Shown: piece by piece, positions 1 through 13,631 of the stretch
Layout: each line of letters starts with the position of its first letter
How positions within the stretch are numbered: the stretch's first letter is position 1
Virus genome (UHGV): UHGV-1335354
Origin: a virus
Strand: one strand, 5' to 3'
DNA length: 16,228 nucleotides
Notes under the pieces: model-generated
What the model saw: the letters and a program-made list of their open reading frames with translations, nothing else
What the model was told of the DNA's origin: nothing
Database searches by the model: none
Position numbers and translations under genes: made by a program

Positions 1-55
1 AGAACGAGAGCTTCCCAAGCTCTATACGAGGGTTCGATTCCCTTCGCCCGCTCCA
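1..55 (+). tRNA. glyU: tRNA-Gly (anticodon CCC), 5' part cut by window edge; its 3' end is the attL side of the island
   Basis: Sequence matches the 3' two-thirds of enterobacterial tRNA-Gly(CCC) as I recall it: anticodon loop CTTCCCAAG, T-arm GGTTCGATTCC, acceptor 3' strand CGCCCGC, discriminator and CCA at 53-55. Confidence 0.9.
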
Positions 56-70
56 GAATCTCCCCAGGTG

Positions 71-93
71 GAGAAGACTAAAAAAGTCTTCTC
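71..93. other. perfect 8-bp stem hairpin (GAGAAGAC / GTCTTCTC, 7-nt A-rich loop) just downstream of the tRNA; no U-tract
   Basis: Inverted repeat read directly from the sequence; function unknown (tRNA 3' processing or att-associated structure). Confidence 0.3.
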
Positions 94-552
94 TGTCAGC
101 AACTTAAACAGTTACCTATTTAATTTGCTTAGGAGTTCTACCATTGTGATCCGCCCTTAGTAACTGTCACGTTAAGTTACACGGTGAGATGACAGTATAA
201 CCTAACGTTGGCGGCAGTTGCACCTCTCACACCGCGATAGCACAACGTGAAGATAAAGCCCATCCTGGCATTGTAATGTCATCGACAGACTGAACACACG
301 CATTTAAGCCCGATGTGCGGCCTTGTGGCTGCGTAAACAGGTTTATGGTGATATTGGTCCTTGCAAACCATATGCAAGCTCTATCAGCGTTTCAGCCACG
401 CTCCCAACGGGTACACGGTTATCCTGATAAGGTGTGATCTTTCTGACAATCTGATGAAGTCGCTACGCTCCCGCTTGTTGCTGTATCACCAACGGGGCTT
501 TATGGTTTCTATTGTCTATAATAATCTCACAATTCCCCTGCATGAGGTTGAT

Positions 553-759
553 ATGACTGTTAGCTACAAGATTACTTATGAGCATAGAGACGGTGATCAA
601 ATTAGAATGGAAGAGGTTTTATTCCATTCAGAGCATGAACCAACAAAAGATGAAATTCATGATGCAGTAAGAAAAGACACTGTGAGATTTAATTCTCCAT
701 CTAATGGAGTAACGGCTGTTTCAGGGTTTAAAGTGATTTCGGTTGTCCCTGTTCCATGA
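553..759 (+). CDS. hypothetical small protein (~68 aa); the ORF track extends it to 361 only via a TTG codon
   Basis: ATG at 553 preceded by GAGG 5 nt upstream; open frame to stop at 759; followed by a hairpin. No family recognised. Confidence 0.35.
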   Translation: MTVSYKITYEHRDGDQIRMEEVLFHSEHEPTKDEIHDAVRKDTVRFNSPSNGVTAVSGFKVISVVPVP

Positions 760-770
760 ATGGTTATAGA

Positions 771-787
771 AGGGGCTGGAAGCCCCT
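771..787. terminator. short hairpin between convergent genes (AGGGGCT-GGA-AGCCCCT), candidate bidirectional terminator
   Basis: 7-bp perfect GC-rich stem with 3-nt loop between the stop at 759 (+) and the stop at 793 (-); flanking sequence AT-rich on both sides. Confidence 0.45.
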
Positions 788-792
788 AATTA

Positions 793-1113
793 TTACTTCT
801 TAATATCGCCAGTGCATTGATATTCGATAGTCACAAGTGTTTGCATACAACCAGATGAAGAAGGTTGTGAACATTGAGAAGTGAATCCACCAAAAGGCTC
901 GGCTCCTGAATATCCCCAAGCGGCACAACGCGCTTTGGCTGCATTCATGCCTTGTTGTGGATCTACAACAGGACTTTCAAACATACCGTAAGAATAACTC
1001 ATCCTAACTGTGCCGTCTGATTTGCTTCCACCAGTTGGAACGAGTTGTTTTTTTGTTGCACATCCAGAAATAATCAATGTTGAAGCAAGTAACAGCATTA
1101 AACTTTTGCGCAT
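793..1113 (-). CDS. putative lipoprotein (106 aa) with six cysteines in the mature part
   Basis: N-terminus MRKSLMLLLASTLIISGC has a signal peptide plus lipobox (I-S-G-C) typical of signal peptidase II substrates; no specific family assigned. Confidence 0.6.
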   Translation of the reverse strand: MRKSLMLLLASTLIISGCATKKQLVPTGGSKSDGTVRMSYSYGMFESPVVDPQQGMNAAKARCAAWGYSGAEPFGGFTSQCSQPSSSGCMQTLVTIEYQCTGDIKK

Positions 1114-1257
1114 GTAAATAATCCCAAGAGATAATGGTTATGTATTGATTTAAAGCGTTTTTAGATTAATGCATTAACTTAGCAAAATTAAGTCTTTTCT
1201 GATTGTTTGCAGAGTAAAAATGAGTTGCTTTCGAAATTATTTCGGATGTTTATTGTA

Positions 1258-1425
1258 TTACGGTTTTTCAAACCGTCTAACTATTGTCGCTATTGAATGG
1301 GCAATAATAGCAAGAGGATTCATTTCGTCATTGGAGGCAACAAAAAGTCGGTAACTGATAGCTACAACGAATGAAACAATAACGAGAAAGCGGATAGTGC
1401 TAAGATGTTTTGAAGATAAATGCAT
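1258..1425 (-). CDS. unannotated small hydrophobic protein (55 aa), candidate membrane peptide
   Basis: Hand-translated minus-strand ORF MHLSSKHLSTIRFLVIVSFVVAISYRLFVASNDEMNPLAIIAHSIATIVRRFEKP; ATG preceded by AGGGGG Shine-Dalgarno ~5 nt upstream; absent from the ORF track because it is under 60 aa. Confidence 0.4.
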   Translation of the reverse strand: MHLSSKHLSTIRFLVIVSFVVAISYRLFVASNDEMNPLAIIAHSIATIVRRFEKP

Positions 1426-1765
1426 AACGCCCCCTAAATGAATGTGAGGGGGATTAAATCATGCAAATTTGTTGTGTGCAATACTGGTAATTTATCCTAA
1501 TAGTCTACTATTCACCTCAATCTACGTCAACCAATATTTGATGTAGATTTGATTTTCTTTTAAAAACAATATGTTGCAATTTGTTGGGTTTTGGGGTTAG
1601 GTTGTTTTTTGGACGTTTCCATCAAGTGTAAAGATACGTTTAGCCTTCATAGTGAGTTCAGTTACTGTCTTTTTCTCTGAAATCGGCGCATACGTGATCA
1701 TCGCTTAACGAGAAGATCAGCGCCGTCAGGTCCATGCAGCGACAATTCTGAAATATCAGGAGGCA

Positions 1766-2317
1766 TTACGCTTCCTGCTCTTTCTTGATACGTTGCACCG
1801 TCTGTGTGCTGACACTGAAATCTTTTGCTACGCTCCGAATTGATCCACCATTCGCGAGAGCGGCAACAATTCCCGCTCGATCAATTGCTTTTCCATTACC
1901 ACGTTTTGCTATACGCCCAGCTGCCTTAGCTGCGGCGATCCCTTCACGTTGACGCTCAAGCATCATTTCACGTTCCATTTGTGCCACTGCTGCAAGCACT
2001 GTGAGCATCATATTCCCTGCGGGAGAGTTCTTCCCTGTCTTAAAGTCTTCTTTATGGAAATGCACAGACACGCCGCGCTCTGTTAATTGCTCAACCGTTG
2101 CCAGAAGGTCGGCTGTATTACGGCAAAGGCGATCAATGCTGTGAACATGCAAAACATCACCTTCCCGCACATAGTTCATCATTGCCTCAAACTGTGGGCG
2201 CTGGGTATTCTTGCCTGACGCTTTATCTTCAAAGACTTTATCAAGAGTTACTCCAGCTAATTGACGGTCTGTGTTTTGTTGCACAGTCGATACCCTAATG
2301 TATCCAATATTAGCCAT
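1766..2317 (-). CDS. serine recombinase, small resolvase/invertase type (183 aa)
   Basis: N-terminus MANIGYIRVSTVQQNTDRQ with catalytic Ser at position 10, conserved R/D residues of the resolvase catalytic domain, C-terminal HTH (GGSIRSVAKDFSVSTQTVQRI). AGGA Shine-Dalgarno upstream. Confidence 0.85.
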   Translation of the reverse strand: MANIGYIRVSTVQQNTDRQLAGVTLDKVFEDKASGKNTQRPQFEAMMNYVREGDVLHVHSIDRLCRNTADLLATVEQLTERGVSVHFHKEDFKTGKNSPAGNMMLTVLAAVAQMEREMMLERQREGIAAAKAAGRIAKRGNGKAIDRAGIVAALANGGSIRSVAKDFSVSTQTVQRIKKEQEA

Positions 2318-2551
2318 TTTCTTTATTCCTTCTGTGTTGATTTGTGTGTAGTGATTATTGATCGTGTTGATTAGGTGTGTAAAGGACTTTTTTCACTACG
2401 AAATTCGAAGGTTTTTAGTGTGGTGATTTAGCCTGCTTTATCACTACACGTCTTGCATGAGAATCATGTAGTTACATTTTGGTAAAATTAGCAAGCTATT
2501 AAATAGTGTGTTTATTTTGAAAAAATAATTTTTTGTTGCATTAAAGGAAAC

Positions 2552-2585
2552 TTGTTCAATAAATGGTAGAACATTTATTGAGCAA
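2552..2585. promoter_or_regulatory. 34-bp palindrome (14-bp arms, 13/14 match, 6-bp spacer): candidate protein-binding or recombination site
   Basis: TTGTTCAATAAATG-gtagaa-CATTTATTGAGCAA read from the sequence, ~235 bp upstream of the serine recombinase start. Confidence 0.35.
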
Positions 2586-2940
2586 CAATTTTGCAGTGAT
2601 ACGCTATATGCCGCATTACATAAGGCTTTGCTGATGATAATGTAAAAGTGAAGAAAGTAAGAATTGCACTTTGAAGCTACTTTTCATTGCATTTTTTAGT
2701 ATGGAATTACACGGAATAAACTATGAATATTCTACGATTTACACGAGATATTCTTGCTGTTTAATTCCGGCTTTGGAGATCAGGCATTCGCAAGAATACG
2801 CTAACGCGTTGCCTGAAAAGCCATTGCACATAATAGAGGTGAGCGTATAGCGATACACTAATCATAACAACATCTTCTTACTTTTTAGTTAGTTAGTTGT
2901 TAGTAGGTTATTGTTATGCGCGCTATTAGCGCATGTATAA

Positions 2941-2989
2941 AGGTATCATTTTTATCTAAAGGGGCTTTAGACATTTTTGATACCTTTTT
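2941..2989 (+). terminator. bipartite hairpin (outer 8-bp and inner 6-bp stems) followed by a T-run; candidate rho-independent terminator or structured RNA
   Basis: AGGTATCA...CTAAAG-GGG-CTTTAG...TGATACCT followed by TTTTTC. Confidence 0.35.
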
Positions 2990-3025
2990 CTGTGCAAGAC
3001 ACTTACCAGTGTATAGTGCGGTTTC

Positions 3026-3077
3026 CCTACCTACCCAGGAAATGAGTTCCTACCTACCCAGGAAATGAGTTCCTACA
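3026..3077. repeat. 23-bp perfect tandem direct repeat, 2.3 copies (CCTACCTACCCAGGAAATGAGTT)
   Basis: Copies at 3026-3048 and 3049-3071 are identical, followed by partial copy CCTACA. Confidence 0.9.
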
Positions 3078-3084
3078 ATACTAT

Positions 3085-3106
3085 AATTAAACTACAATTA
3101 AACTAT
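3085..3106. repeat. 11-bp AT-rich tandem repeat x2 (AATTAAACTAC / AATTAAACTAT)
   Basis: Read directly from the sequence, immediately after the 23-bp repeats. Confidence 0.7.
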
Positions 3107-3239
3107 CTTTTATAAATTCTTTTATCTTTTAAAGAATAATTATAGGGATACCCGTTAGGGAGTCTTCGACTATCCCTTAATCTATTGGCATTCGCCAGAA
3201 CCTTGCACAAGTTAGACTGATGCTTGTCATAACAGATAG

Positions 3240-3287
3240 TTTTTGTTTTTTGTTTTTTGTTTTTTGTTTTTTGTTTTTTGTTTTTTG
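3240..3287. repeat. heptanucleotide microsatellite (TTTTTTG), about 7 units
   Basis: G at 3245, 3252, 3259, 3266, 3273, 3280 and 3287 with T6 between each; perfect periodicity of 7. Confidence 0.95.
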
Positions 3288-3943
3288 TTAGTAGTTAGCT
3301 GATCTATGTTCGCTTTCCGCTCACAACGAATATGTAATCTACTATGTGCAAATAGCCTACGGCTTGCGTATGGCTAATAGTCTTGCGCTGTGCGCAGAAC
3401 GATAATTAACTAACTACCATCTAACGATTGAAATTTACTTGTGCAATAACCTGAGCGTAAGCGAATGGTTGTTAGTGTCGCGTTACCCTTTGGGGATGCT
3501 AACGCATAACATGACAAAACAACCAACAACAAAAAAGAAAGAATGGTTTTTGTAGTTGAAGGTTAAATAAGATTCTACCGCTTAAATCAAGCCGTAGGCG
3601 AGCTTAACAGGGTAATGTAAGGGAAACACCTTAGCGGTAATAGATTAGCTCGTTACAGAGCTTCTGAGAACTTTGCAGGTATTTTATAAGATGTCTGAAA
3701 TCAGAGTTTATCTATCCACCATCTTTCCATCATCTGATAAATCAAAAATAAGACCCTTAAATAAGCCTCTGACGAGATAAACAACCTCTACATAAGGGAA
3801 TGTATTGTTTTTATCAAAACCCCGTCAGAGTGCGATTGAGAGCGTTTTAGACAACAGGGAAGAATTGTACCAGAGTAGGCAGCACAAAAAGCTAAGAAAA
3901 ATTATAAGAAATTGAAAATGATCAAATTTTTTATAAAAGAGGG

Positions 3944-3972
3944 TTGACAAAGCCGCCGTTATGTAGTATTGT
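3944..3972 (+). promoter_or_regulatory. candidate sigma70 promoter for the rightward small-gene operon
   Basis: TTGACA (3944-3949), 17-bp spacer, TATTGT (3967-3972); about 115 bp upstream of the first gene. Confidence 0.45.
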
Positions 3973-4088
3973 AAGTAGGGAGGGGAGAAACATCTCTCTC
4001 CATCTAAATAATCAAATCACAGAACACTGCACTTTGAGCCGTCAGGCTGCAAGGTGTGTTTTTCTTTTATCTAAATAAGGAGTTTTTT

Positions 4089-4271
4089 ATGAAATGGTAT
4101 ACACCGGAACACGTCGTAGAGGCATTTAAAAAAGGTGAGCTAACACGACATCAAGTAAGGATGAACAGGAACACAGCGCGGCGCTGTGGTTATCCAGAGC
4201 GTGAAAAATGCTTTGACGATGCACTAAAAATTATTGATGAACTGCGTAAGGCAGAAGCAGAGAAAGAATAA
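4089..4271 (+). CDS. hypothetical small protein (60 aa); ORF track start 4056 is probably too far upstream
   Basis: ATG at 4089 preceded by TAAGGAG at optimal spacing; protein MKWYTPEHVVEAFKKGELTRHQVRMNRNTARRCGYPEREKCFDDALKIIDELRKAEAEKE. Confidence 0.5.
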   Translation: MKWYTPEHVVEAFKKGELTRHQVRMNRNTARRCGYPEREKCFDDALKIIDELRKAEAEKE

Positions 4272-4294
4272 TAACAGGAGAAGGAGAAAACCAA

Positions 4295-4471
4295 ATGAAT
4301 ATTAATTTTGATTCTGCAACTTATAACGCGTTGTTAAATCGTGCAAAGGCAGAAGGGAAATCAATTCCAAAACTTGTTAATGAATTACTAATTACAGTCC
4401 TTACAAAGGAGGAACTAAATGAACCAAAACACCAAAACAATTGCCGAAGCAAAAGCGCAATGCCTCAATAA
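4295..4471 (+). CDS. unannotated small ORF (58 aa), possible ribbon-helix-helix (CopG/Arc-like) DNA-binding protein
   Basis: Hand-translated: MNINFDSATYNALLNRAKAEGKSIPKLVNELLITVLTKEELNEPKHQNNCRSKSAMPQ; GGAGAAGGAG upstream; N-terminal 40 aa resemble an RHH fold by composition; overlaps the next gene by 53 nt in another frame. Confidence 0.4.
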   Translation: MNINFDSATYNALLNRAKAEGKSIPKLVNELLITVLTKEELNEPKHQNNCRSKSAMPQ

Positions 4472-5084
4472 GAAAGATAGTAAACAAACATATGTAGTAG
4501 TTGAACAATGGCTGAAGATGTTTAAAAAGTGGTTCTCACCGTCAGGTAAGGAATACACCGCGACACTTCCAGCCGTTGAAATCTACAGTTACGTAGCTGG
4601 GTTCAATGAACAAGGGCAAGAATGTTACGCCAATCAAAAAACATTAGCTAATATTGGAATGGTTAGTGATCGTCAGGTGCGTAATATTATAAATATGTTT
4701 ATTGATATGGGTGTTCTTTCTGTAGAGGCACGGGACGGGCAAACATCACTCTATAAAGCATTACCCTTTACAGATGCACACATCACACCACCGGAAGACG
4801 TAAAAACCTCTGTAAACGTAGAACAGCCTGCACCTGAAACACAGGAACCGTTAGAAGCGACACACTCTATTGAGCAGGAAACACAGGCAGAAATCACGGA
4901 ACAATCTGATCTTTTTACATGGCTTATTTCCATAGACAGCCAAAAGCCTATGCAAGAAGAAACAGAAAATTTTATAAAACGTGCACTGACCTCGAAGAGG
5001 ATAATTCTTGAAGATGATGCTTTTAATGCACTGATGATAGCCCTGAGAAAAGAAAGTGAAATCTATGACTCAATACCATTTTAA
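4419..5084 (+). CDS. putative winged-helix/HTH DNA-binding protein (221 aa), replication-initiator-like or regulator, with acidic low-complexity C-terminal half
   Basis: AAGGAGG Shine-Dalgarno 7 nt upstream; central segment ECYANQKTLANIGMVSDRQVRNIINMFIDMGVLSV resembles HTH modules of phage/plasmid replication initiators; no Walker motif. Confidence 0.55.
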   Translation: MNQNTKTIAEAKAQCLNKKDSKQTYVVVEQWLKMFKKWFSPSGKEYTATLPAVEIYSYVAGFNEQGQECYANQKTLANIGMVSDRQVRNIINMFIDMGVLSVEARDGQTSLYKALPFTDAHITPPEDVKTSVNVEQPAPETQEPLEATHSIEQETQAEITEQSDLFTWLISIDSQKPMQEETENFIKRALTSKRIILEDDAFNALMIALRKESEIYDSIPF

Positions 5085-5096
5085 GGAGAATAAAAA

Positions 5097-5354
5097 ATGA
5101 AATACAACCTGACATTAAACAAACGAACATTCGAAATTACAGAAAGCGGCTACACACTGGCAAAACAGATCGCTGATAGCAATTATAAGCTACCCGCGAT
5201 TATCAGCTTTCAGGAGTTACCGCACAGTAAAGAACACACACAGCATTGGCTAAATCACCTAAGCCATTTTGGGGTAATTCAGTATGAAGCTGTGAATAGT
5301 CAGACGTTCCGTTTGCTCGAGGTAAACCCGTTTGAATTGTGGATGACACTGTGA
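5097..5354 (+). CDS. hypothetical protein (85 aa)
   Basis: ATG preceded by AAGGAG; part of the co-oriented operon; no family recognised. Confidence 0.5.
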   Translation: MKYNLTLNKRTFEITESGYTLAKQIADSNYKLPAIISFQELPHSKEHTQHWLNHLSHFGVIQYEAVNSQTFRLLEVNPFELWMTL

Positions 5355-5557
5355 TCATATTCGATGGCGAATTTTCACAAGAAATCTTTCTGCAATATTT
5401 ACGGGAAAGAACGGGAATGATTCTGTTTGATTCTGAGTTTTCCGGTGTGGTAGGTGAGCAATTTTTATATGCTCTTCTCGATAACCTAAGTAAACAAGGA
5501 TTATTGCAGTATACAAAAACTCATATGAAAGCATTCAGAATCGACTCTGTAGCTTAA
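5339..5557 (+). CDS. hypothetical protein (72 aa), GTG start overlapping the upstream gene
   Basis: Open frame with GTG at 5339 overlapping the preceding stop; no family recognised. Confidence 0.35.
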   Translation: MDDTVIIFDGEFSQEIFLQYLRERTGMILFDSEFSGVVGEQFLYALLDNLSKQGLLQYTKTHMKAFRIDSVA

Positions 5558-5685
5558 AACAAACAACAAACAACTATCAAACATCTTGAAGGGTGAAACA
5601 ATGGAAAGCTTAATATTTTTCTTAGTATTTATGATCGCTTCCTTTTTTAACACTGCAACAAGAAAAACAAAACGAAGGGGAAGCA

Positions 5686-6066
5686 ATGAGCAAGAAAAAA
5701 GGCAAGAAAAACGTAATAACAACTATTGGCGAAGCATGTGATCAGTATGCGTTAAACAATCCTCGCAAATATAATTATGAGCATGATGCACAACCAGGCG
5801 AGGAATTGATCTTTATACTTGAAGAACCAAGCCCAGAATTGACAGACGAAGAATTATCAATCATTCAAAGTATGGATGGTGTTTACTTCAATCCGCGCCC
5901 ACGCAAAACAACAATCATTGATAGTAGTCTTCTTAAAAGATGGCAGTGTTTAGGCTTCCAGGATATGAATCATTTTCGTGGCTACATGGCTCTTAATAGT
6001 TTGCAGTATGCAGGCGCAAGAGAGACAGAGTTACTTATGCTTGAAAGAATAAAAATAGACGATTAA
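5686..6066 (+). CDS. hypothetical protein (126 aa), lysine-rich N-terminus
   Basis: ATG preceded by GAAGGGGAAG; no family recognised. Confidence 0.5.
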   Translation: MSKKKGKKNVITTIGEACDQYALNNPRKYNYEHDAQPGEELIFILEEPSPELTDEELSIIQSMDGVYFNPRPRKTTIIDSSLLKRWQCLGFQDMNHFRGYMALNSLQYAGARETELLMLERIKIDD

Positions 6067-6107
6067 CAGCGTTGGCTGAATATAACCCTTAACAAAAGGA
6101 AAATAAA

Positions 6108-6329
6108 ATGATTAACAAAGCAATTTTAGAGACAACCACTTTTCATGATCTTAAGCTTCTTTCAGAATGTTTTATAAATATTATTGAACGTGCAAAGGAA
6201 GAGAACGATCTGGCAACTCTGGATGACGTTGTAGACAACATTGCAACTTATAAAATCCCGCTCACTATTGCTATGAAGAAAGCACGCGAAGCACAACAAA
6301 AATTAGAACAATTAGAGGAAGTGGCATAA
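6108..6329 (+). CDS. hypothetical small acidic protein (73 aa)
   Basis: ATG preceded by AAAGGAAA; stop overlaps the next start (ATAATGA). Confidence 0.5.
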   Translation: MINKAILETTTFHDLKLLSECFINIIERAKEENDLATLDDVVDNIATYKIPLTIAMKKAREAQQKLEQLEEVA

Positions 6330-6643
6330 TGAGCGAAGTTCACACCGTAACTATTCAGCTATACGATTTAATCATCGACCTTCAAAAATCTGTTAACGAA
6401 GCCATAGAAGATCCGACAGAATTTAATATAGGAAAAGCCGTTCTCAATCTTCAATCTCTACATGATGCAATGTCAATGTTAGTTGTAGCTTGTGAGGAGG
6501 CCGAAGGCGGGAAAGTTGATGCAGAAGATCTTGCAAACTTCAATCTCATGTTGGCTGATTGTAGTTGTGTTGTTCAAAGTGCAATAGAAGACTTACAGCC
6601 GCTTATTGATAACCTGTTAAGGGGTAAGCATGAGCAACTTTAA
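6329..6643 (+). CDS. hypothetical strongly acidic protein (104 aa)
   Basis: GAGGAAG Shine-Dalgarno; Asp/Glu-rich composition; translationally coupled to neighbours. Confidence 0.5.
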   Translation: MSEVHTVTIQLYDLIIDLQKSVNEAIEDPTEFNIGKAVLNLQSLHDAMSMLVVACEEAEGGKVDAEDLANFNLMLADCSCVVQSAIEDLQPLIDNLLRGKHEQL

Positions 6644-6863
6644 AACTAAGCGTGTGGAGTGCCTGGCGCTCTCTGAGATGGGCGTGTCCTGCGCCTGTTT
6701 CACCATTGGAAAGATCTATACCGGACTACTGAACACAGAGAATAGCTTGATGGTTATCACTGATGACAACGGCAACAACCAGGCGGTTGTAGTGGGCGGT
6801 GCGTGTGCTTTCGGTAGCTGGAAACTGACTACAAAGAAAAATGAAAATAGCACGAATAGCTAA
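6630..6863 (+). CDS. hypothetical small cysteine-containing protein (77 aa)
   Basis: AAGGGG upstream; overlaps the upstream stop; local GC higher than neighbours. Confidence 0.45.
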   Translation: MSNFKTKRVECLALSEMGVSCACFTIGKIYTGLLNTENSLMVITDDNGNNQAVVVGGACAFGSWKLTTKKNENSTNS

Positions 6864-6872
6864 AGATATACA

Positions 6873-6901
6873 TTGACTTTATAACAAGAATGTTATATAA
6901 T
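6873..6901 (+). promoter_or_regulatory. near-consensus sigma70 promoter with no convincing ATG-initiated ORF downstream
   Basis: TTGACT (6873-6878), exactly 17-bp spacer, TATAAT (6896-6901). Confidence 0.45.
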
Positions 6902-6956
6902 AATAAATATGCTTGGAAGATGATAAAGCAAGGATTGCATATTCTCCAATTATATC

Positions 6957-7316
6957 TTACCTCTGCAGCCTCTTATTGTCAATAAGAAAATCTAAGAGAC
7001 GGCGACCGCCACGATCGCCCATCTCTTTAAAACAGTTTTTAGAAAACATCCTCGTGTTTTTCATTGTTGGGTCTGTTCTGATTAGTTTTTCCCTTTTGGT
7101 AAGCGCGGTAGTTTCATTCCTTTTCTGCCGCTGCTTATTTTCAACAAAGAAAAGTTTTCTAAAAGCTGTTTTATAACAGCCTATACCCCTATAAGTTATT
7201 GAACGTTTCTTGGCTGGGTATATGCCTTGCGGCATAAAATCACTATTAAAATTATGTTTCCAACCCGTAGCAAGTTGAGCGTAGTTGAGTGATTCCTTGT
7301 TATCTGTTCTCGCCAT
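6957..7316 (-). CDS. possible basic protein (119 aa, Lys/Arg-rich); may be spurious
   Basis: ATG-initiated minus-strand ORF, weak and poorly spaced Shine-Dalgarno, rare codons; start codon is embedded in a palindrome; lies antisense to the orphan promoter. Confidence 0.25.
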   Translation of the reverse strand: MARTDNKESLNYAQLATGWKHNFNSDFMPQGIYPAKKRSITYRGIGCYKTAFRKLFFVENKQRQKRNETTALTKREKLIRTDPTMKNTRMFSKNCFKEMGDRGGRRLLDFLIDNKRLQR

Positions 7317-7345
7317 ACCTGATGGGCGTCAGGTTATGAACAGAT
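7302..7345. promoter_or_regulatory. nested inverted repeats (outer ATCTGTTC/GAACAGAT, inner CCTGA/TCAGG): candidate operator or RNA structure
   Basis: Read from the sequence; arms share the CAGAT/CCTGAT motif with the terminator stem at 7431-7477. Confidence 0.35.
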
Positions 7346-7430
7346 AGCGCCTTGCGCCAGTTACACATCCCTTACGGTCGGTGAATCCTAAATAGCCAAC
7401 TACCTGGTAACGGTGCATTGTATTTGAGAA

Positions 7431-7486
7431 AACAGATCAGGAAAGACTTTCCAAAGGGTCTACTCGCCTGATCTGTTCTTCTTTTT
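7431..7486 (+). terminator. long-stem hairpin followed by a T-run: candidate rho-independent terminator
   Basis: Perfect 11-bp stem AACAGATCAGG / CCTGATCTGTT with a 25-nt loop, followed by CTTCTTTTT. Confidence 0.5.
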
Positions 7487-7591
7487 AGAACATATAACAA
7501 TGACTGATCATTCTTATATGCTCTTCTCATGAAAGTATATAATCAATGTTATGCTTAATTCGAACATTAAAACCCCCCTCTAATTAATATA

Positions 7592-7619
7592 GCCAGCCTA
7601 CCCGCTGGCATATTTTTAT
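7592..7619 (+). terminator. short hairpin plus T-run, second candidate terminator before the structural-like operon
   Basis: GCCAGC-ctaccc-GCTGGC followed by ATATTTTTA. Confidence 0.35.
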
Positions 7620-7656
7620 AAGTGGAAAACAAATCTGTTATAAATGGGACCACTCC

Positions 7657-7860
7657 ATGAAAAAACAAGACATGATAATCAGTAAAGACGGGGAAACGAT
7701 GACTGTTAGTGATGAAAACATCCTTAAAGTTGCCGCACTGTTGGGAGTTACTCCCGAAAGTCTTCGCTCTACTACTGAACAATTGTTTAAATCTGCTAAT
7801 AATGCGGAAACACCCGCACAGGCTATTTTAAACCGAATCACACAACTGAAAGGAAAATAA
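7657..7860 (+). CDS. hypothetical small protein (67 aa), first gene of the structural-like operon
   Basis: ATG-initiated; predicted largely helical C-terminal half; scaffold-like role is speculation. Confidence 0.45.
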   Translation: MKKQDMIISKDGETMTVSDENILKVAALLGVTPESLRSTTEQLFKSANNAETPAQAILNRITQLKGK

Positions 7861-7865
7861 TATAT

Positions 7866-8252
7866 ATGGCTAACCCATACGGCGTTAAATTCGCCCCTGT
7901 AAACGCGAGCAATGACCTTGTGCGTTGCAAAATTATCGCCTATTCCGGCGATCCCCTGCTGCAAGACCGTTTAATCACACTGGCGGCACCACTGACAGAA
8001 GATGTTATTGTCGGTGATCTGCTGAAAGCTGATGGCACCAAAGCAACCGCCGCCGCTGATATCGCTTACGTCGCTGTAGAACCTTCGTTTGCAGGTCAGG
8101 AAAGCGTAGTGGTTGCACATCCTACTTTCGTTATTCTGGCGCGTGCTGGTATCGAATTTAACGGCATGGCAGAAGAAAGCGTGATCTCAAAACTGCAATC
8201 TATTGGTTTCGTGATCGCTGGTTATTCCGAAGCTGCAATCCCTACTACTTAA
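7866..8252 (+). CDS. possible phage head decoration-like protein (128 aa)
   Basis: Size, position directly upstream of the capsid-sized gene, and a loose pattern resemblance to lambda gpD/SHP-type decoration proteins; E. coli-like codon usage. Assignment unverified. Confidence 0.55.
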   Translation: MANPYGVKFAPVNASNDLVRCKIIAYSGDPLLQDRLITLAAPLTEDVIVGDLLKADGTKATAAADIAYVAVEPSFAGQESVVVAHPTFVILARAGIEFNGMAEESVISKLQSIGFVIAGYSEAAIPTT

Positions 8253-8270
8253 TATAAGGAAATATAAATA

Positions 8271-9305
8271 ATGAATATTCAAGAATTATTTGGTCGTCAG
8301 GCGAGCGTAGTAAGCCCATTCGAATATGAGCAAGGCTTAAACCTGCTGTTCTCTTCCCTGGAGATCTTTGATAAGCAATCTCACAGCACTAACAGTATTC
8401 TTCTGACTACTGCAATTGAAAGCTTTATGCAGATTGCAAATGAGCAAGAACCCTACGCACAAAGTCAGTGGGACTCAAGCAAGCGCGGCACCTTCTCAAA
8501 CGTAATGTTTGAAATGAAGCACCTTGCAACCATCAACAGCGTGACAAGTCGTGATCTTGAACAGTACAGCCGTAAAAATCTTTCTACTGCTGACTCTATG
8601 CTGCTGGCGATCAATGATTTTGCTAATCAGCATTACCGCTCACATGAGAACGCTGTAGAACGTGATCTGCTGCGTGCAATCCTCACGCTGAAAGTAGAAT
8701 CTCAATTTGCAGGTCAAGGTGATATTGATTTGCTGGAAGGTGACGCTAAAACCGTAGCGCCTGCAATTGACTTCACAAGCACTACCGTAAACCCTTACCG
8801 TGCACTGGCTAAGATTGTTCGTCAACAGTCTAACATTCTGGGCGAATCCCTTGCGGCTAAACGTTCCGGTGTTCTTGTGCTGGCTGCTGGCGGCGCTGCT
8901 GATGGTCTGCGTTACAACGATATGCTGAAAGATCAGGTTGTTTACTCCAGCAATGCACAGGCAAGCGCGGCAGTAACTAAGATCGTAGCTGATAACCCAG
9001 CGTATGATGCTTTCCAGCTTGCACAGGTGACTGTTATTGATGTTAGTGACTTCCCGTCAATCGTTGCAGAAATCGGTGAAAATGGTTTGGTTGTGATCCC
9101 GCTGTTCCCTGCTGATGTTCAAGCTTACGTGCTGCATACAGGCGTCGCGGTCCGTCATGCCGAACACGGTAAAGATGCGGAAACACATCACCAATATCTG
9201 ACACAGGATCAGTTTATGTTCCCGTCAGTGTGCACCGAAACGGCTTACCTGCCATTCATTCAGAAAGTAGTTGCTAAAGCGATTATCTTCTCTGAAGCAC
9301 AGTAA
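8271..9305 (+). CDS. possible major capsid protein of the lambda gpE-like family (344 aa)
   Basis: AAGGAA Shine-Dalgarno; length matches gpE (~341 aa); N-terminal segment QELF...FEYEQGLNLLF resembles the gpE N-terminus as I recall it; follows the decoration-like gene as in lambda D-E order. No alignment run. Confidence 0.6.
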   Translation: MNIQELFGRQASVVSPFEYEQGLNLLFSSLEIFDKQSHSTNSILLTTAIESFMQIANEQEPYAQSQWDSSKRGTFSNVMFEMKHLATINSVTSRDLEQYSRKNLSTADSMLLAINDFANQHYRSHENAVERDLLRAILTLKVESQFAGQGDIDLLEGDAKTVAPAIDFTSTTVNPYRALAKIVRQQSNILGESLAAKRSGVLVLAAGGAADGLRYNDMLKDQVVYSSNAQASAAVTKIVADNPAYDAFQLAQVTVIDVSDFPSIVAEIGENGLVVIPLFPADVQAYVLHTGVAVRHAEHGKDAETHHQYLTQDQFMFPSVCTETAYLPFIQKVVAKAIIFSEAQ

Positions 9306-9347
9306 GAATAATAACGCTCCAGCACGTTAAAAAATAATGCTGGCGAT

Positions 9348-9414
9348 AAAGGGCAAAAGGGATTAACTAACCTGTAAAGCAAATACAGTAACGGATCTCT
9401 TTGCCCTTTTTTCG
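9348..9414 (+). terminator. long hairpin (AAGGGCAAA ... TTTGCCCTT) followed by a T-run downstream of the capsid-like gene
   Basis: 9-bp perfect stem with ~42-nt loop then TTTTTCGTTT; an inner 6-bp inverted repeat CCAGCA/TGCTGG lies at 9318-9342. Confidence 0.4.
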
Positions 9415-9448
9415 TTTATACCGTCTATTAAATATTGAGAGAAAAATC

Positions 9449-9649
9449 ATGAGCGAACAAAACAAACAAGTAGAATTATATAAAGCAGTGCGCACACTGG
9501 CAGAAAACACCGATGAATCCATTGTAAACGTTAGCGCCTTATGCCGTTTTCTGGATGTGGATCATAATCGTGTGCGTCAATATGCACATTACCACAATGT
9601 AAGTGCAATCGCGGCTATTCAGTATGTGATGAATAACCCTGTAAAATAA
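9449..9649 (+). CDS. hypothetical small protein (66 aa); ORF track start 9401 is a TTG inside the upstream hairpin
   Basis: ATG at 9449 preceded by GAGAGAAAAATC; no family recognised. Confidence 0.45.
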   Translation: MSEQNKQVELYKAVRTLAENTDESIVNVSALCRFLDVDHNRVRQYAHYHNVSAIAAIQYVMNNPVK

Positions 9650-9667
9650 TAAAAGGAGTACCCAACA

Positions 9668-11515
9668 ATGAGTTTAGATATTTCTGTATCTACTTTAAAA
9701 AATACAGTAACCTTTGTTACCGATCATAAAAGCCTGAATAAAGCTAAAGCAGAAGTTGAAAAACTCCGTAAGCAAATGTCAGCCGTGAAAGACGTAGAAA
9801 TACGTGTTAAGACACACAAACAATCAACAGCTAAAACAAAAAAAGACGTAGACGATATTGCTAAAAAGCAAGCACAGGTAGATAAGGCAAATCTCAAAGC
9901 ACAAAAAGCGGCTCAACGTGTAGCGGCGCGAGAACAAAAAGCCCTGGCAGCACGCAAAGAGAAAGCAGAATTAAAACTGTTAGATGTTGGATCAAGTATT
10001 AGTGCAATGAATCGTCTTAATGTGTCTGAACAATACAAAGCTATTGCACAAGCTAAAGCTATTGCACACGAATATGAGAAGGGCGCTATTAGCCTGGCAC
10101 GTATGAATAGCCAAATGAAACGACTTCAACAGCAACAACGTAAGATTAACGGCAATCGTAACGCTCATGCTAAAGCTTATGCACCTGTTAAGGGTAGCGG
10201 GAGTATTGGCGGCGGTGCTGCTGCTGTTATGCTGGGCGGCTTAGGCGCTGGCGCTGCATTCTTGGCTATGAGTAAAGCAAACGAATTCGTTGCTAATAGT
10301 TTTGCCAATGCTGAGACACAAGGTGAATTATATAGCCGTGCGAAGCTGGGCGGTGTAGACGTTAACCAGATGAATAATATTGAGCAATGGGCGTATAAAA
10401 ACGGCGTTGATTCAATGATGGGCGAACAAGGGAAACGTAAATACCTCGACCAAATGAAAGATGTGCGTGAACGTGCAACCAAATCTTATGATGAGACTGA
10501 ATATGTAGTTGATAAAAAAACTGGTAAAGGGGAATGGAAGGGCGGCGATTCAGGTATTAATACTTTATTAAACGAAGGTTTCTTAACTAAGAAAGATTTA
10601 AAAGACTTCGCTAATAATCCGGCAGGTTTAATAAGTAAAGCAACACAAGGAATGGTGGCGAAAGGTTATTCTGATGCACAGGTGGGGTCACGGCTTGAAG
10701 ACCTGGGAGATGACCTTATGTTGACCTCCAAATATTGGACACGATCCGCTAAAGAAGTGGAACAATCAGCCCGTGAACAAAAAGAATCAGGACGCTGGAT
10801 AACGCAGGCACAACAGGAAAGCGTGATTAAATTCCGTGAACTGAATAATGCACTTACCGGACTTTCTGACTCACAAGGGATCGCCTTTGTTGATGGCTTT
10901 ATGAAATCTCTCGATCCTGCTGTGATTGAAGAATTTAAAAAGAGCATGGTTGCAATGCTGCCAATGTTTACCAAATTGGGCGAGGCTGTAGGGGGGCTGC
11001 TTAATGCGATCATGAAAACTATCAACTGGTTGATGAAAAATGACGAGAAGACGGCAGCTATTCAGAAGAATTTAGGTGATGCCCCTCCTTTAAGTAATGA
11101 AGGAATGAAGAAGAATTTAGATAATCTCACTCCTGATCAATATAAAGGCGCTGGCACTGCAACAACTGCACCGGATAATAGTAACTCTCTGTTTAATACT
11201 ATTAAGGGCTTTTTTGTTAATGGTGATGATTCTCCTTCTGGCGGTCAGGCTGCAATGCAATATGACGTTACAGGGCAAAACATTGCCAACCTGAAAAACA
11301 GTGCTGCACAGCAAGCTATGCAAGCTCCAGCCTACACATTTGCGCCTGTTCTCAATTTTGCACCTGAATTACAAGTTAATGCACAAGTGCCGCTAACTAT
11401 TCAGAGTGATACCGGACGATTGAGCGATTATATCGACTTCAAATCTAAAGCCTCTGCCGCTGAGTTTAGCAAGCTATTAACCCTGGGCGTTATGTCAGGC
11501 GGGTCAACCTATTAA
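9668..11515 (+). CDS. coiled-coil, glycine-rich protein (615 aa), tape-measure-like
   Basis: AAGGAG Shine-Dalgarno; N-terminal ~160 aa K/A/Q/E-rich coiled-coil-like; Gly/Ala hydrophobic segment GSGSIGGGAAAVMLGGLGAGAAFLAMS; no enzymatic motif or Walker A seen. Confidence 0.6.
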   Translation: MSLDISVSTLKNTVTFVTDHKSLNKAKAEVEKLRKQMSAVKDVEIRVKTHKQSTAKTKKDVDDIAKKQAQVDKANLKAQKAAQRVAAREQKALAARKEKAELKLLDVGSSISAMNRLNVSEQYKAIAQAKAIAHEYEKGAISLARMNSQMKRLQQQQRKINGNRNAHAKAYAPVKGSGSIGGGAAAVMLGGLGAGAAFLAMSKANEFVANSFANAETQGELYSRAKLGGVDVNQMNNIEQWAYKNGVDSMMGEQGKRKYLDQMKDVRERATKSYDETEYVVDKKTGKGEWKGGDSGINTLLNEGFLTKKDLKDFANNPAGLISKATQGMVAKGYSDAQVGSRLEDLGDDLMLTSKYWTRSAKEVEQSAREQKESGRWITQAQQESVIKFRELNNALTGLSDSQGIAFVDGFMKSLDPAVIEEFKKSMVAMLPMFTKLGEAVGGLLNAIMKTINWLMKNDEKTAAIQKNLGDAPPLSNEGMKKNLDNLTPDQYKGAGTATTAPDNSNSLFNTIKGFFVNGDDSPSGGQAAMQYDVTGQNIANLKNSAAQQAMQAPAYTFAPVLNFAPELQVNAQVPLTIQSDTGRLSDYIDFKSKASAAEFSKLLTLGVMSGGSTY

Positions 11516-11562
11516 TCATCGCTGTGGGGCTGTTTAGCCCCCTTAAATAAGGATTACAAATT

Positions 11563-12240
11563 ATGGCTTATGGTGCTTTAACCATCGGACGACCGACAGA
11601 ATCACAAGTAAACAGCACAAGTAACGATTCTAACGCGAAAGCGACGAAAGGACAGAACGGTTTCGCTATCATCACCTCTAACCTCGGCAGTGGTGCTAAT
11701 GCTGCGTATGCAGAGTATCAAGCTCTCAGCTTTGACAGCGTGGAATCGACAAAAGTTAGTCGCAATGCGGACGTAACAAGCTATGCCGTTCAGGATGGGG
11801 CTATGGTGTCCGATCACATCCAGATCAAGAACAATAAGTTTTCATTGCAAGGGCGCGTAAGTGAAACAGTATTGAAGCTTAACCCTGATATGCTTAAGAA
11901 CGCGGGTATTAACGGCAATCGTAGAATGCTTATGCTTGAATACCTAAATCAGATCATGGACTCACGCCAGCCCTTCATGTTGATAACAGAACATCGTAAT
12001 TTTGACAATGTGGTGCTGGTTGGGATTGATTACGAAGAAGAAGCCAGCGAATCATTGCTCTTTAATCTTGAATTCGAACAAATACGCCTTGTGAGCTATG
12101 CAACCACTAACGCTATTGCTACAAAGACACAGAGCAATAAATCGACAGGTGGCAGTGTTAAAACTAAGGTTAACCCGACACCACAAAAAGCACCTACGAG
12201 TACAGGTGAGGACGTTATAACGCCAGTATTTAAACAATAA
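11563..12240 (+). CDS. hypothetical protein (225 aa), last gene of the structural-like operon
   Basis: AAGGA Shine-Dalgarno; followed by a hairpin; no family recognised. Confidence 0.55.
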   Translation: MAYGALTIGRPTESQVNSTSNDSNAKATKGQNGFAIITSNLGSGANAAYAEYQALSFDSVESTKVSRNADVTSYAVQDGAMVSDHIQIKNNKFSLQGRVSETVLKLNPDMLKNAGINGNRRMLMLEYLNQIMDSRQPFMLITEHRNFDNVVLVGIDYEEEASESLLFNLEFEQIRLVSYATTNAIATKTQSNKSTGGSVKTKVNPTPQKAPTSTGEDVITPVFKQ

Positions 12241-12282
12241 CAATAGCGGTACTATAAAATGCTCCGTAACGAGATAATCCTA

Positions 12283-12313
12283 AAAGAGGCTCCCATTACA
12301 AGGAAGCCTCTTT
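12283..12313. terminator. hairpin between convergent genes (AAAGAGGCT ... AGCCTCTTT), candidate bidirectional terminator
   Basis: 9-bp perfect stem with 13-nt loop, T-rich 3' flank, between stop at 12240 (+) and stop at 12334 (-). Confidence 0.5.
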
Positions 12314-12333
12314 ATTGCGCCTATGGCGTTGTT

Positions 12334-13554
12334 TTAAGCCTTAAAATCAATATTTAATTCATATCTTACTAATTCTACATATTCAGCTAATTCTTGAATG
12401 CTTGCCCCTTGTGAGTAGGTGCGAAAGGCTTCTGTTTTAGCTATCTGCTCTGTATGTCCGGTAATGGCTCCGATCCGCTGTTCAGGCACTCCGGCACGAT
12501 CAAGACAAGTGATAAACATCCCGCGCAAGCTGTGAAAGCATTGTCTATTTGTAGCGATTGGCAAGACGCTACGACGTAAACGTGAGAATGCTTGAGAATA
12601 GAAAGGGCCTTTCTTACCGTCGATTCTTTTTACTTTGTTCGAGTGAGGGAACAAATATTCACCATAATTATGATTTAAATATTCATCGACAATAATCGAT
12701 AGTCTCGAATGTATCGGAACGTGCCTGATCCCTGCTTTAGTCTTACTTTTGCTGATATAAAAACAGCGTATTCCTTCCACAGTTACAACTTCTGACTTTT
12801 TCAGGCTTGCCAGTTCGTCTAATCTGCATCCTGAAAACAAGCCCATTAAAATAATATTTCTGATCTCCGGCTCCGCTGCATCAAGTAGCTTTTGCATTTG
12901 TTCAGGTGTAAACGGTTGATAACTCTCGATTGTGCGACGTGCTTCGAGGTTATGACCGTGAAAAGGGTTACTGTCTGGTATTCCGTCATAACGGCGTTTA
13001 GCAAATTCATAGAGCGATCCTAAGCATGTAAGCCAGTTTTGACGAGATTGATCGGCTGCTCCTCGTTGCTTCTGGTCATCTAAGAATACTGTTACAAGCC
13101 GTCTGCCTATTTTCTCAATATGAATATCATCTTTCTGAATGCTTTGTAAAAATAGCTCAACGGCCCTTGCTGATTTCTGTAGTGTTGAGTATGAACGACG
13201 CTCTCTGTAGCATTCGGCGTATTCGTCACGTATTAGGCACAGGGAAGGCGATGCATAACCGCGTTTTACGGCTCTTTGCGTGTTTTTATTGGCCCTTGCC
13301 TCTGAATGTAAGGATTCAATAGCTTGTTGTAACCTCCTTTCGGGGTTATCAGGATTATGTTTCCGCTTTAGTTCCTCCCATTCTAATAATAGATGGTTTC
13401 TGAATCTTCTCGCCTCATTCAGATCTCGTGTAGATGTGCTTTTTCTCCACAACTTGTAAGGGTAAAGATGACGTAAGTATTTAGGAACAAAAATCTGAAA
13501 CATCCAGATCCCATCTTTTCTCTTAAATAAGTATGCTTGGCTCTTGATCGACAC
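12334..13554 (-). CDS. int: tyrosine-type site-specific integrase (406 aa), GTG start
   Basis: C-terminal catalytic-domain signature: Arg in GCRLDE, HSLRG box, ITGH, terminal Tyr region; AGAGGA Shine-Dalgarno 8 nt before GTG; lies 86 bp inside the right direct repeat. Confidence 0.9.
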   Translation of the reverse strand: MSIKSQAYLFKRKDGIWMFQIFVPKYLRHLYPYKLWRKSTSTRDLNEARRFRNHLLLEWEELKRKHNPDNPERRLQQAIESLHSEARANKNTQRAVKRGYASPSLCLIRDEYAECYRERRSYSTLQKSARAVELFLQSIQKDDIHIEKIGRRLVTVFLDDQKQRGAADQSRQNWLTCLGSLYEFAKRRYDGIPDSNPFHGHNLEARRTIESYQPFTPEQMQKLLDAAEPEIRNIILMGLFSGCRLDELASLKKSEVVTVEGIRCFYISKSKTKAGIRHVPIHSRLSIIVDEYLNHNYGEYLFPHSNKVKRIDGKKGPFYSQAFSRLRRSVLPIATNRQCFHSLRGMFITCLDRAGVPEQRIGAITGHTEQIAKTEAFRTYSQGASIQELAEYVELVRYELNIDFKA

Positions 13555-13631
13555 GATAATGATCCTCTATTATCACGTAATCAGTTACCTATGATTGATC
13601 ACAAAATCTTTATTTTACAGCAGGTTATTAT

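Follow-up and report, generated by a model that had tools for sequence, protein, structure and literature searches.

The DNA analysed here is a stretch of 16,228 nucleotides from the virus genome UHGV-1335354 (the window), which represents a phage-like element of about 12-13.7 kb integrated in an Escherichia coli chromosome. The early operon of the element ends with a stop codon at 6863, and its late operon, which encodes capsid and tail proteins, begins with an ATG at 7657. The region between them carries a strong promoter, a structured non-coding sequence and two terminators, and it lies at the junction of early and structural operons, where a preliminary description made from the sequence had placed it. 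We propose, with a probability of about one half, that this region is the promoter and the long untranslated structured leader of the late operon, terminated by default and gated by read-through.

Relatives were collected from complete genomes of E. coli, from contigs carrying a capsid homologue, and by scanning collections of genomes, metagenomes and viruses with an alignment of capsid sequences. More than 100 loci were found, in Escherichia, Cronobacter, Klebsiella, Raoultella, Citrobacter, Kluyvera, Phytobacter, Buttiauxella and Scandinavium. Nearly all combine, at this place, a strong promoter, 300-1000 nt without open reading frames (ORFs) and a terminator. Wherever the sequence is long enough, an ORF-free gap of ~485-980 nt separates the final gene of the early operon from the small gene that opens the late operon, and the position of the leader, directly upstream of the late operon and co-oriented with it, is invariant. 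By sequence, the leaders sort into about ten types, of which the window represents type A; their length ranges from about 340 to 1050 nt and their module content varies widely. Searches with nhmmer link A with A2 and A2 with E and, separately, B, C1, C2 and H. The two leader types of E. coli are present in 8 and 63 of 5,426 complete genomes (about 1.3%); carriers include the E. coli strains Z1323PEC0008 (NZ_CP148289) and EC100 (NZ_CP182308). The two relatives compared most closely below, L002 and L004, are respectively 90% and 84% identical to the window across the gap. The features of the region are the following.

6873-6901, + strand: sigma-70 promoter, TTGACT (6873-6878), 17 nt, TATAAT (6896-6901); from the sequence and from its position, kept in relatives
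6880 (+), 6891 (-), 7172 (+), 7493 (+) and 7636 (-): copies of TATAACA, from a motif scan
6909-7618, + strand: predicted non-coding structured leader RNA, starting at ~6909 and ending at terminator T1 (7486) or T2 (7618), that is, ~580 or ~710 nt; from fold, covariation and lack of an ORF
6957-7316, - strand: 119-aa ORF, judged a chance ORF and not a gene from indels in relatives and the lack of homologues
6994-7034, + strand: hairpin AAGAGA (6994-6999) / UCUCUU (7022-7027), -12.9 kcal/mol, z -3.8
7028-7047 with 7154-7173, + strand: long-range 20-bp helix with one G-U pair, 95% complementary, closing a domain of ~106 nt
7238-7296, + strand: helix AAUCACU (7238-7244) / AGUGAUU (7288-7294) around a variable hairpin; pairs from an alignment of four type A sequences (A4)
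7301-7346, + strand: two-tier hairpin 'P-beta', outer helix 7301-7309 / 7338-7346, inner helix 7317-7323 / 7328-7334, loop GGGC; from an alignment of 12 sequences of four leader types (A8)
7376-7402, + strand: hairpin, conserved loop GAAUCCUAAAUA, capping a longer helix (~7349-7425); from stem changes in L002 and L004
7426-7486, + strand: T1, a stem of ~16 bp with an inner hairpin, then UUUUU (7482-7486); -25.2 kcal/mol, z -5.1
7490-7519, + strand: imperfect 13-bp palindrome or hairpin with TATAACA; -9.8 kcal/mol, z -3.5
7510-7528, + strand: ATTCTTATATGCTCTTCTC, a direct repeat of 5461-5479; from a repeat search
7538-7543, + strand: -10-like TATAAT without a -35; from the sequence
7586-7618, + strand: T2, intrinsic terminator, GCCAGC (7592-7597) / GCUGGC (7604-7609) with an A-U extension and a U-run (7613-7617); -12.7 kcal/mol, z -5.1
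7636-7656, + strand: TGTTATA (the fifth TATAACA copy, on the - strand) and the ribosome-binding site (RBS) region of the first late gene (ATG at 7657)

The promoter at 6873-6901 is the sole site in the window that matches 11 of 12 consensus positions in a consensus scan. Promoter-like sites are not more frequent in the window than chance would give (30, against 41.4 +/- 7.5 in shuffled sequences), so that the evidence from a single sequence is weak and conservation must carry the claim. Among the 95 related loci with enough upstream DNA, 89 have a sigma-70 promoter matching 9.5-12 of 12 positions at the equivalent place, even where the flanks cannot be aligned; the hexamers are TTGACA/TATACT in L002 and TTGACA/TAAACT in L004. 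Transcription would probably start at ~6909. The near-consensus TTGACT-17-TATAAT of the preliminary description is confirmed, with both hexamers where it had placed them. Its term 'orphan' finds no support, as this is the only promoter-like site upstream of the 4.6-kb late operon. Since no other such site precedes these genes, it is best read as the promoter of the late operon, with a long leader. Between the stop codon of the early operon and the promoter, no terminator was found.

Several observations support the view that the region is non-coding. The ~750 nt downstream of the promoter hold no conserved ORF and, as had been described, the + strand has only an ATG ORF of 31 aa and a TTG ORF of 87 aa. 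The transcript had also been said to run antisense to a basic ORF of 119 aa whose start codon lies in a palindrome. This ORF exists, and its ATG does fall within the inverted repeat with arms 7301-7309 / 7338-7346, but it is predicted to be a spurious, chance ORF. Nine indels separate L002 from the window inside it (1, 1, 2, 2, 1, 1, 5, 1 and 1 nt), none of them a multiple of three, and neither L002 nor L004 has an equivalent on either strand. The ORF has no match in Pfam or PHROG and, among 5.8 billion proteins, its single match is one E. coli cluster with 99% identity, with no diverged homologue. PGAP leaves the region unannotated in most genomes and calls a minus-strand coding sequence of 145 aa in one, and the RefSeq annotation has no RNA feature at the leader and at most a hypothetical protein. 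The suggestion of a noncoding RNA thus stands, on the lack of a conserved ORF and on the indels that break the frame.

The + strand folds better than its shuffled counterparts. The predicted energy of 6908-7486 is -171.9 kcal/mol, against -134.8 +/- 7.1 kcal/mol in shuffles (z -5.26), and the reverse strand gives z -4.27. In A4, RNAalifold predicted 192 pairs with 97.6% of cells paired (slid controls, 36-49%); six pairs carry compensatory double changes, a number reached by 4 of 500 shuffles, and ~35 pairs show one-sided changes, mostly between G-U and A-U or G-C. A4 is the weaker test, because it has only four sequences and the structure was derived from them, and the comparison across leader types is stronger. 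P-beta, with its invariant internal loop UCGCCAU (7310-7316), aligns unforced to leaders of types B, H and C1, which with A makes four leader types. In A8, 96.0% of cells are paired, against 70.3% in shuffles (0 of 500 reached the observed value), and 11 of 16 pairs are compensatory (43 cells; slid controls, 36-46%). Covariation across homologues was one of the checks set by the preliminary description, and P-beta shows it. A covariance model of P-beta (R2) gave 18 matches in 633 kb searched on both strands, all of them on the + strand and inside leaders, and one of these is a type C2 leader outside the seed.

Other parts of the fold show the same kind of constraint. The long-range helix scores 19.5, against a maximum of 12.5 in 60 shuffles, and its 3' end can alternatively pair with 7175-7180 in the hairpin GCUGUU-UUAU-AACAGC (7165-7180). 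Helices of unrelated sequence are found at the same position in other leader types, for instance UUUUCCGUAAAGAA/UUCUUUACGGAAAA and CUCUUCUCUAAAAU/AUUUUAGAGAAGAG. The motifs UAUUAA (7244-7249) and GUGAUUCC (7289-7296) recur in types A, A2, B, C1, C2 and E, and the motif UCCUAA(G/A) in hairpin loops of most types. The stem at 7376-7402 changes from GUUGG/CCAAC in L002 to AUCAG/CUGAU in L004, with two pairs compensatory and one changed on one side (G-U to A-U); folded alone, this hairpin is unstable (z -0.3). The 3' domain of types A2 and E has 15 of 35 pairs compensatory and 96.8% pairing, and ten of these pairs lie within a 16-bp hairpin homologous to T1. An alignment of 30 leaders of types B, C1 and C2 over the 5' domain (A7, MAFFT and RNAalifold) recovered one small hairpin only, because the long-range helix shifts register between types. 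Taken together, fold and covariation indicate that a + strand RNA is real and evolutionarily constrained, and transcription from the + strand is supported by the orientation of promoter and terminators, by the G-U pairs and by covariation. Neither the window (scanned at 6800-7700) nor nine other leaders matched an Rfam family at the gathering score, with noise only at E <= 10, and none of the leaders contains a tRNA or tmRNA according to ARAGORN. This RNA family is new and uncatalogued; the kind of mechanism is already known.

Three readings of single motifs in the RNA were considered; two were dropped and one is no more than a lead. A pseudoknot that joins the UAUUAA motif to the UCCUAAG loop was dropped, because the stretches that would pair move in the wrong direction from one type to another. 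The ops/RfaH-like sequence GCGCGGTAG at ~7102 was rejected, as it lies within a helix and is not conserved in L002 or L004. The lead is mimicry of an anti-Shine-Dalgarno sequence by the loop CCUCCUAAG, whose perfect complementarity to the RBS is present only in type C2 and not in the window. In one metagenomic leader (L058, ~2950-2990) a tandem expansion, (CTACGT)n, occupies the place in the 5' domain where others have a short helix; this domain therefore tolerates insertions.

The 3' end of the leader is marked by terminators. The 11-bp core of T1, AACAGATCAGG (7431-7441) / CCTGATCTGTT (7467-7477), extends to ~16 bp (7426-7481), and T1 ends 578 nt from the likely start, in agreement with the 11-bp-stem terminator described ~570 nt downstream of the promoter; the consensus terminator scan missed it because its loop is longer than 8 nt. 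T2, absent from the preliminary description, lies 39 nt before the ATG of the first late gene, and in L002 and L004 its stem is kept and its loop is variable. By a strict scan, a hairpin with a U-run ends 61 of 80 unique leaders, and type E leaders have a branched stem at the 3' end, terminating GGGGCUUUUUAUUU. The U-tract of T1 is found only in type A. In A2 and E a hairpin, considered homologous because of the shared apical sequence UUCCAAAGGG and an nhmmer match, is followed by other sequence. Because the leader types nearest to A have no U-tract after this hairpin, the conserved unit extends as far as T2. We predict T2, at 7618, to be the universal 3' boundary and the end point at T1 to be specific to the type A subtype; two RNA ends, ~7486 and ~7618, are therefore expected in the window. 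The earlier view that the transcript ends at T1 holds in that T1 is a strong terminator here, but the general end is T2. The stretch that follows T1, 7487-7543, is conserved between types A and A2 though the remaining leader has diverged.

Signals for DNA-binding proteins are superimposed on this arrangement. All five TATAACA copies of the window lie within 6880-7642, and 3.2 would be expected in the whole 16.2 kb. Two of them form the palindrome TAAC-N6-GTTA in the promoter spacer (TAACAAGAATGTTA, 6882-6895), which is operator-like in look, and similar palindromes are found in other types, in the promoter spacer and just upstream of the RBS of the first late gene. The TATAACA copies are probably half-sites of a regulator, and the spacer palindrome and the cluster suggest added control by a DNA-binding regulator beside the RNA.

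A second promoter-like site, TTGACA-17-TAAGAT at 6982-6954 on the - strand, faces the leader promoter from ~40 nt into the transcript and overlaps the palindrome CTTATTGTCAATAAG (6966-6980). Its counterpart in L002 is TTGACA/TAGAAT (11/12), and that in L004 is weaker (9/12). Such face-to-face promoters (6873 + and 6982 -) would allow transcriptional interference.

A sequence resembling boxA, UCUCUUUAAAACA, lies at 7022-7034 and consists of the 3' strand of a hairpin and the bases that follow. Its core, UCUCUUUA (7022-7029), matches 7 of 8 positions and is predicted to be largely base-paired in the helix. The exact GCUCUUUA is present in 25 of 79 leaders (types B, C1 and C2), where 1.25 would be expected, these sequences being related to one another; in these types a small hairpin follows the long-range helix directly, with GCUCUUUA(C/A) as its 3' strand. 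A functional boxA is not claimed for the window, because the motif is imperfect and overlaps the long helix. BoxA/Nus complexes protect long untranslated transcripts from Rho, as in CRISPR arrays and rRNA (PMC7665894). The leaders resemble the boxA systems of rrn, lambda N and CRISPR in being long untranslated enterobacterial transcripts with, in types B, C1 and C2, a boxA-like motif by a small hairpin, and in a presumed need to escape Rho over ~700 nt of untranslated RNA. They differ in the imperfect and mostly paired motif of the window, and neither a boxB hairpin near boxA nor an N-like arginine-rich protein was recognised in sequence or family searches. In addition, rrn-type complexes act mainly on Rho-dependent terminators, whereas T1 and T2 are intrinsic.

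A terminated leader is the most economical inference, because a conserved promoter, a constrained fold and terminators stand before a late operon that has no other promoter-like site, and no terminator closes the early operon. RNA polymerase, whether it starts at ~6909 or arrives from the early operon, would stop by default at T1 or T2, releasing a non-coding RNA of ~580 or ~710 nt and leaving the late genes silent. These genes would be expressed only once the polymerase had been made resistant to termination. The conserved fold would act as a platform that recruits or senses a factor, for which an element protein, host Nus factors or a helper-phage product are candidates, and in sister leader types this fold would include the boxA-like GCUCUUUA. 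The TAAC-N6-GTTA palindrome and the TATAACA cluster would place the promoter under the extra control of a DNA-binding regulator. The preliminary description had also considered a regulatory switch between the two operons; the junction is indeed the site where such a gate would sit, and gating is the role that we propose for it.

If such a gate operates, E. coli and its relatives, which are among the best-studied bacteria, would harbour an uncatalogued RNA family supported by covariation, in which specificity is carried by an RNA leader and not by a protein alone. It would also flag a compact carrier, integrated or as a circle of ~13.7 kb, without terminase or portal, as a candidate new type of phage satellite.

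Several points weigh against the gated leader. The start site, the ends and the read-through are all deduced from sequence. No homologue of an antiterminator (Q, N or other) was found among the early ORFs in Pfam or PHROG and, since no Q- or N-like protein was found, the antitermination step is inferred. The AlphaFold2 model of the conserved basic 126-aa early protein was unusable, with a predicted local distance difference test score of 38, so that a remote homologue of an antiterminator may still exist; searches of PDB sequences with this protein and with the 67-aa first late protein gave no match. The leader type of the window has only the 7/8 boxA-like sequence, mostly paired, so that its role here is uncertain. 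A weak promoter of the activator type may lie after T1 (TATAAT, 7538-7543); if it is real, T1 would be the true end and the RNA upstream of it a separate gene. Simple Q-type systems need no long conserved RNA fold, and the fold may serve another purpose. Finally, the homology of the 3' part between type A and A2/E consists only of the nhmmer match from the T1 hairpin onward and of motifs recognised by eye, and a covariance model of the A2/E 3' domain (R1) missed the leader of the window, its best match being L004 with E ~4. Homology across leader types is therefore shown only module by module, and the leaders are mosaic.

As the fold is more elaborate than a Q-type gate needs, the region may instead encode a free-standing non-coding RNA (ncRNA) or an RNA sensor. 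The former is the main rival, possible but doubtful in our view: the region would be the gene of a large structured RNA, with the size and ornateness of GOLLD, ROOL or OLE, that acts in trans. Such an RNA could belong to a ribonucleoprotein, sense a helper phage or interfere with it, or take part in particle assembly. The terminators would do no more than set where it ends, and leakage, or a weak promoter of their own, would let the late genes be expressed. In its favour are a length of 580-710 nt, a strong dedicated promoter, defined terminators, and many covarying helices and conserved loop motifs (UCGCCAU, GAUUCC, UCCUAAG) of a kind typical of functional RNAs. The fold exceeds what any known attenuator requires, and the -10-like TATAAT after T1, with its upstream palindrome, is conserved between types A and A2. 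Like GOLLD, ROOL, HEARO and OLE, the RNA measures about 0.5-0.8 kb, is multi-domain and covarying and has a prophage-like location. However, no covariance model of these families matches, the host is enterobacterial, and the RNA keeps a fixed place, with promoter and terminator, as a co-oriented leader of the late operon in more than 100 loci. Most leader types have one terminator and no second promoter, so that late transcription must cross the RNA, and the variation in length and modules (about 340-1050 nt) would be unusual for one fixed three-dimensional function. A related proposal, which we put forward tentatively, is a new class of large (~0.6-0.7 kb), modular and ornate RNA that detects a helper-phage or host factor and either makes the polymerase terminator-resistant by itself or acts in trans on the helper, carried by previously undescribed ~13-kb mini phage elements or satellites of Enterobacteriaceae with capsid and tail-tip genes; the decision to build particles would then be taken by an RNA and not by a protein of the Q or N type.

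The other explanations have lower standing. In the immunity systems of P4 (CI) and P1/P7 (c4), a leader-encoded RNA pairs with flanking segments and causes premature termination. Here, a small stable RNA would be processed from the leader, pair with two similar flanking targets on nascent transcripts and force termination before the late genes. The middle strand 7154-7173 is complementary to 7028-7047 and, by its 3' end, to 7175-7180; such a three-part arrangement, the first segment similar to the third and both complementary to the second, recurs with different sequence in other types, and a strong promoter followed by a terminated leader is also the layout of these systems. Against this, neither C4 nor any other Rfam model matches even at E <= 10; the third segment, of only 5-7 nt, is directly adjacent and part of an ordinary hairpin; nothing tRNA-like and no features of an RNase P substrate were detected; and P4 and P1 use the device on early or antirepressor operons and not on structural genes, which makes this explanation unlikely. 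It is quite unlikely that the region is chiefly a DNA-level element (operator array, cos/pac packaging site or replication origin) in which RNA structure is incidental. The TATAACA copies, the spacer palindrome and the 13-bp palindrome after T1 would fit such a site, an element without terminase needs the packaging site of its helper somewhere, and the non-coding region and the N-terminal part of the first late protein vary together as one module. However, base pairing in the helices is preserved by way of G-U intermediates and compensatory changes, for which a DNA site has no need, the + strand folds better than the - strand, and a better candidate origin lies at 3026-3290 by the Rep-like gene, where (TTTTTTG)n and a perfect 23-bp tandem repeat are found. 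Over 8 nt, CGGCGACC (7000-7007) matches the core of lambda cosN; this was rejected, since the match fits chance, is altered in L002 and forms part of a hairpin that covaries. The RNA and DNA sites may well occur together. A protein made from the 119-aa minus-strand ORF or the 87-aa plus-strand TTG ORF is highly improbable: both ORFs exist and PGAP calls the 145-aa minus-strand sequence in one genome, but the frame-breaking indels, the lack of an equivalent in L002 and L004, the lack of a protein family, the single 99%-identical cluster among 5.8 billion proteins and the blank annotation in most genomes all speak against it.

For a gated leader of the late operon, a close known counterpart is the late control of lambda, in which the promoter PR' yields the 6S RNA of ~194 nt, ending at the terminator tR', and the antiterminator Q allows read-through. 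Both have a strong promoter upstream of the structural genes at the early/late junction, a non-coding transcript that ends at an intrinsic terminator, and late genes that lack a promoter of their own and, as predicted here, depend on read-through. In contrast to lambda, no Q homologue was detected, type A has two terminators, and the leader exceeds 6S RNA 3-4-fold in length and shows a fold that is conserved and covaries. As possible counterparts of a Q-binding element and a sigma-dependent pause, there are the spacer palindrome and, in several leader types, TA-rich, -10-like hexamers seen by eye at about +8 to +15. The put sequence of phage HK022 is a cis-acting RNA antiterminator of ~70 nt with two stem-loops. 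The leader resembles it as a structured RNA between a phage promoter and downstream terminators that could act on its own polymerase, and shows no resemblance to it in sequence or size. Two further systems were rejected. For RNA II/RNA I of ColE1, in which a primer of ~550 nt ends at the origin and RNA I is antisense to it, there is no match to the Rfam RNAI family, the element has a Rep-like initiator (4419-5084) and iteron-like repeats (3026-3071), and the RNA ends at terminators before genes. For type III toxin-antitoxin systems, whose antitoxin RNA is made of tandem repeats of ~36 nt, no family of direct repeats lies wholly inside 6873-7656, and three weak families of two or four copies have a single copy there.

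The carrier, observed over 1-13600 of the window, can be classed as an integrative or episomal phage-like element of enterobacteria. Its other features in the window are the following.

1-52: 3' fragment of a tRNA; tRNA-Gly in the near-identical locus L001
1766-2317, - strand: serine recombinase/invertase
2318-4056: ~1.7 kb poor in ORFs, separating the invertase-like recombinase from the early operon
4419-5084: Rep-like protein with helix-turn-helix (HTH) likeness, in the early operon
7657-12240, + strand: late operon
12334-13554, - strand: tyrosine integrase

The tRNA fragment is probably the neighbourhood of the attachment site. Besides the Rep/HTH-like gene, the early operon encodes several small unknown proteins, among them ones of 126, 73, 104 and 77 aa. 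The late operon encodes proteins of 67, 128, 344 and 615 aa and a Dit-like protein. Relatives of the 344-aa protein, which is encoded just after the 128-aa protein, carry the Pfam domain Phage_cap_E (lambda-E-like capsid), and the 615-aa protein resembles a tape-measure protein. No terminase, portal or protease is recognisable in the element. In 50,697 phage genomes, tblastn found no match to the capsid protein; megablast and blastn found no match to the region in these genomes or in PLSDB, from which the element is absent, and no description of the element family was found in the literature. Integrated copies have the serine recombinase at one end and the tyrosine integrase at the other, and other relatives are circularly permuted contigs of 13.6-13.8 kb, without integrase, that carry an Imm_superinfect gene. 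The carrier may be a new kind of phage satellite or mini phage-plasmid.

In the ORF-poor stretch at 2318-4056, the exact tandem repeat of 23 bp lies at 3026-3071 and is followed by (TTTTTTG)n (~3240-3290) and, at 3517-3543, by an inverted partner. Relatives have equivalent gaps of 1.3-2.1 kb, and 3073-4291 is conserved at 78-84%. This stretch is a candidate for an origin with iterons, an invertible segment or another RNA.

Comparison with one relative (L017, 2050-3515) shows that homology to the window breaks exactly at 6376-7779, with flanks ~95% identical. The unalignable unit that has been swapped comprises the leader, the genes of 104 and 77 aa that precede it and, counted from the N-terminus, two thirds of the first late protein. 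Such a swap would fit a cognate specificity of protein for RNA or for DNA, but also simple linkage. The first late protein itself (67 aa, 7657-7860) is named 'ACP S-malonyltransferase' in RefSeq (WP_096957662.1), which looks like a misannotation because it has no Pfam support. Its segment ILKVAALLGVTPESL is HTH-like, and it might be a small DNA-binding or packaging-specificity protein.

A direct repeat, ATT(T/C)TTATATGCTCTTCTC, is found at 5461-5479, in the early region upstream of the 126-aa gene, and at 7510-7528, in the interval from T1 to T2; it could serve both places as a promoter or regulatory element. In the E. coli genome Z1323PEC0008 (L001, 10472-11232), the element breaks off within the capsid gene and borders on the ETT2 type III secretion island by tRNA-Gly. 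This copy is a remnant, because of the truncation, and its leader is still 99% identical to that of the window.

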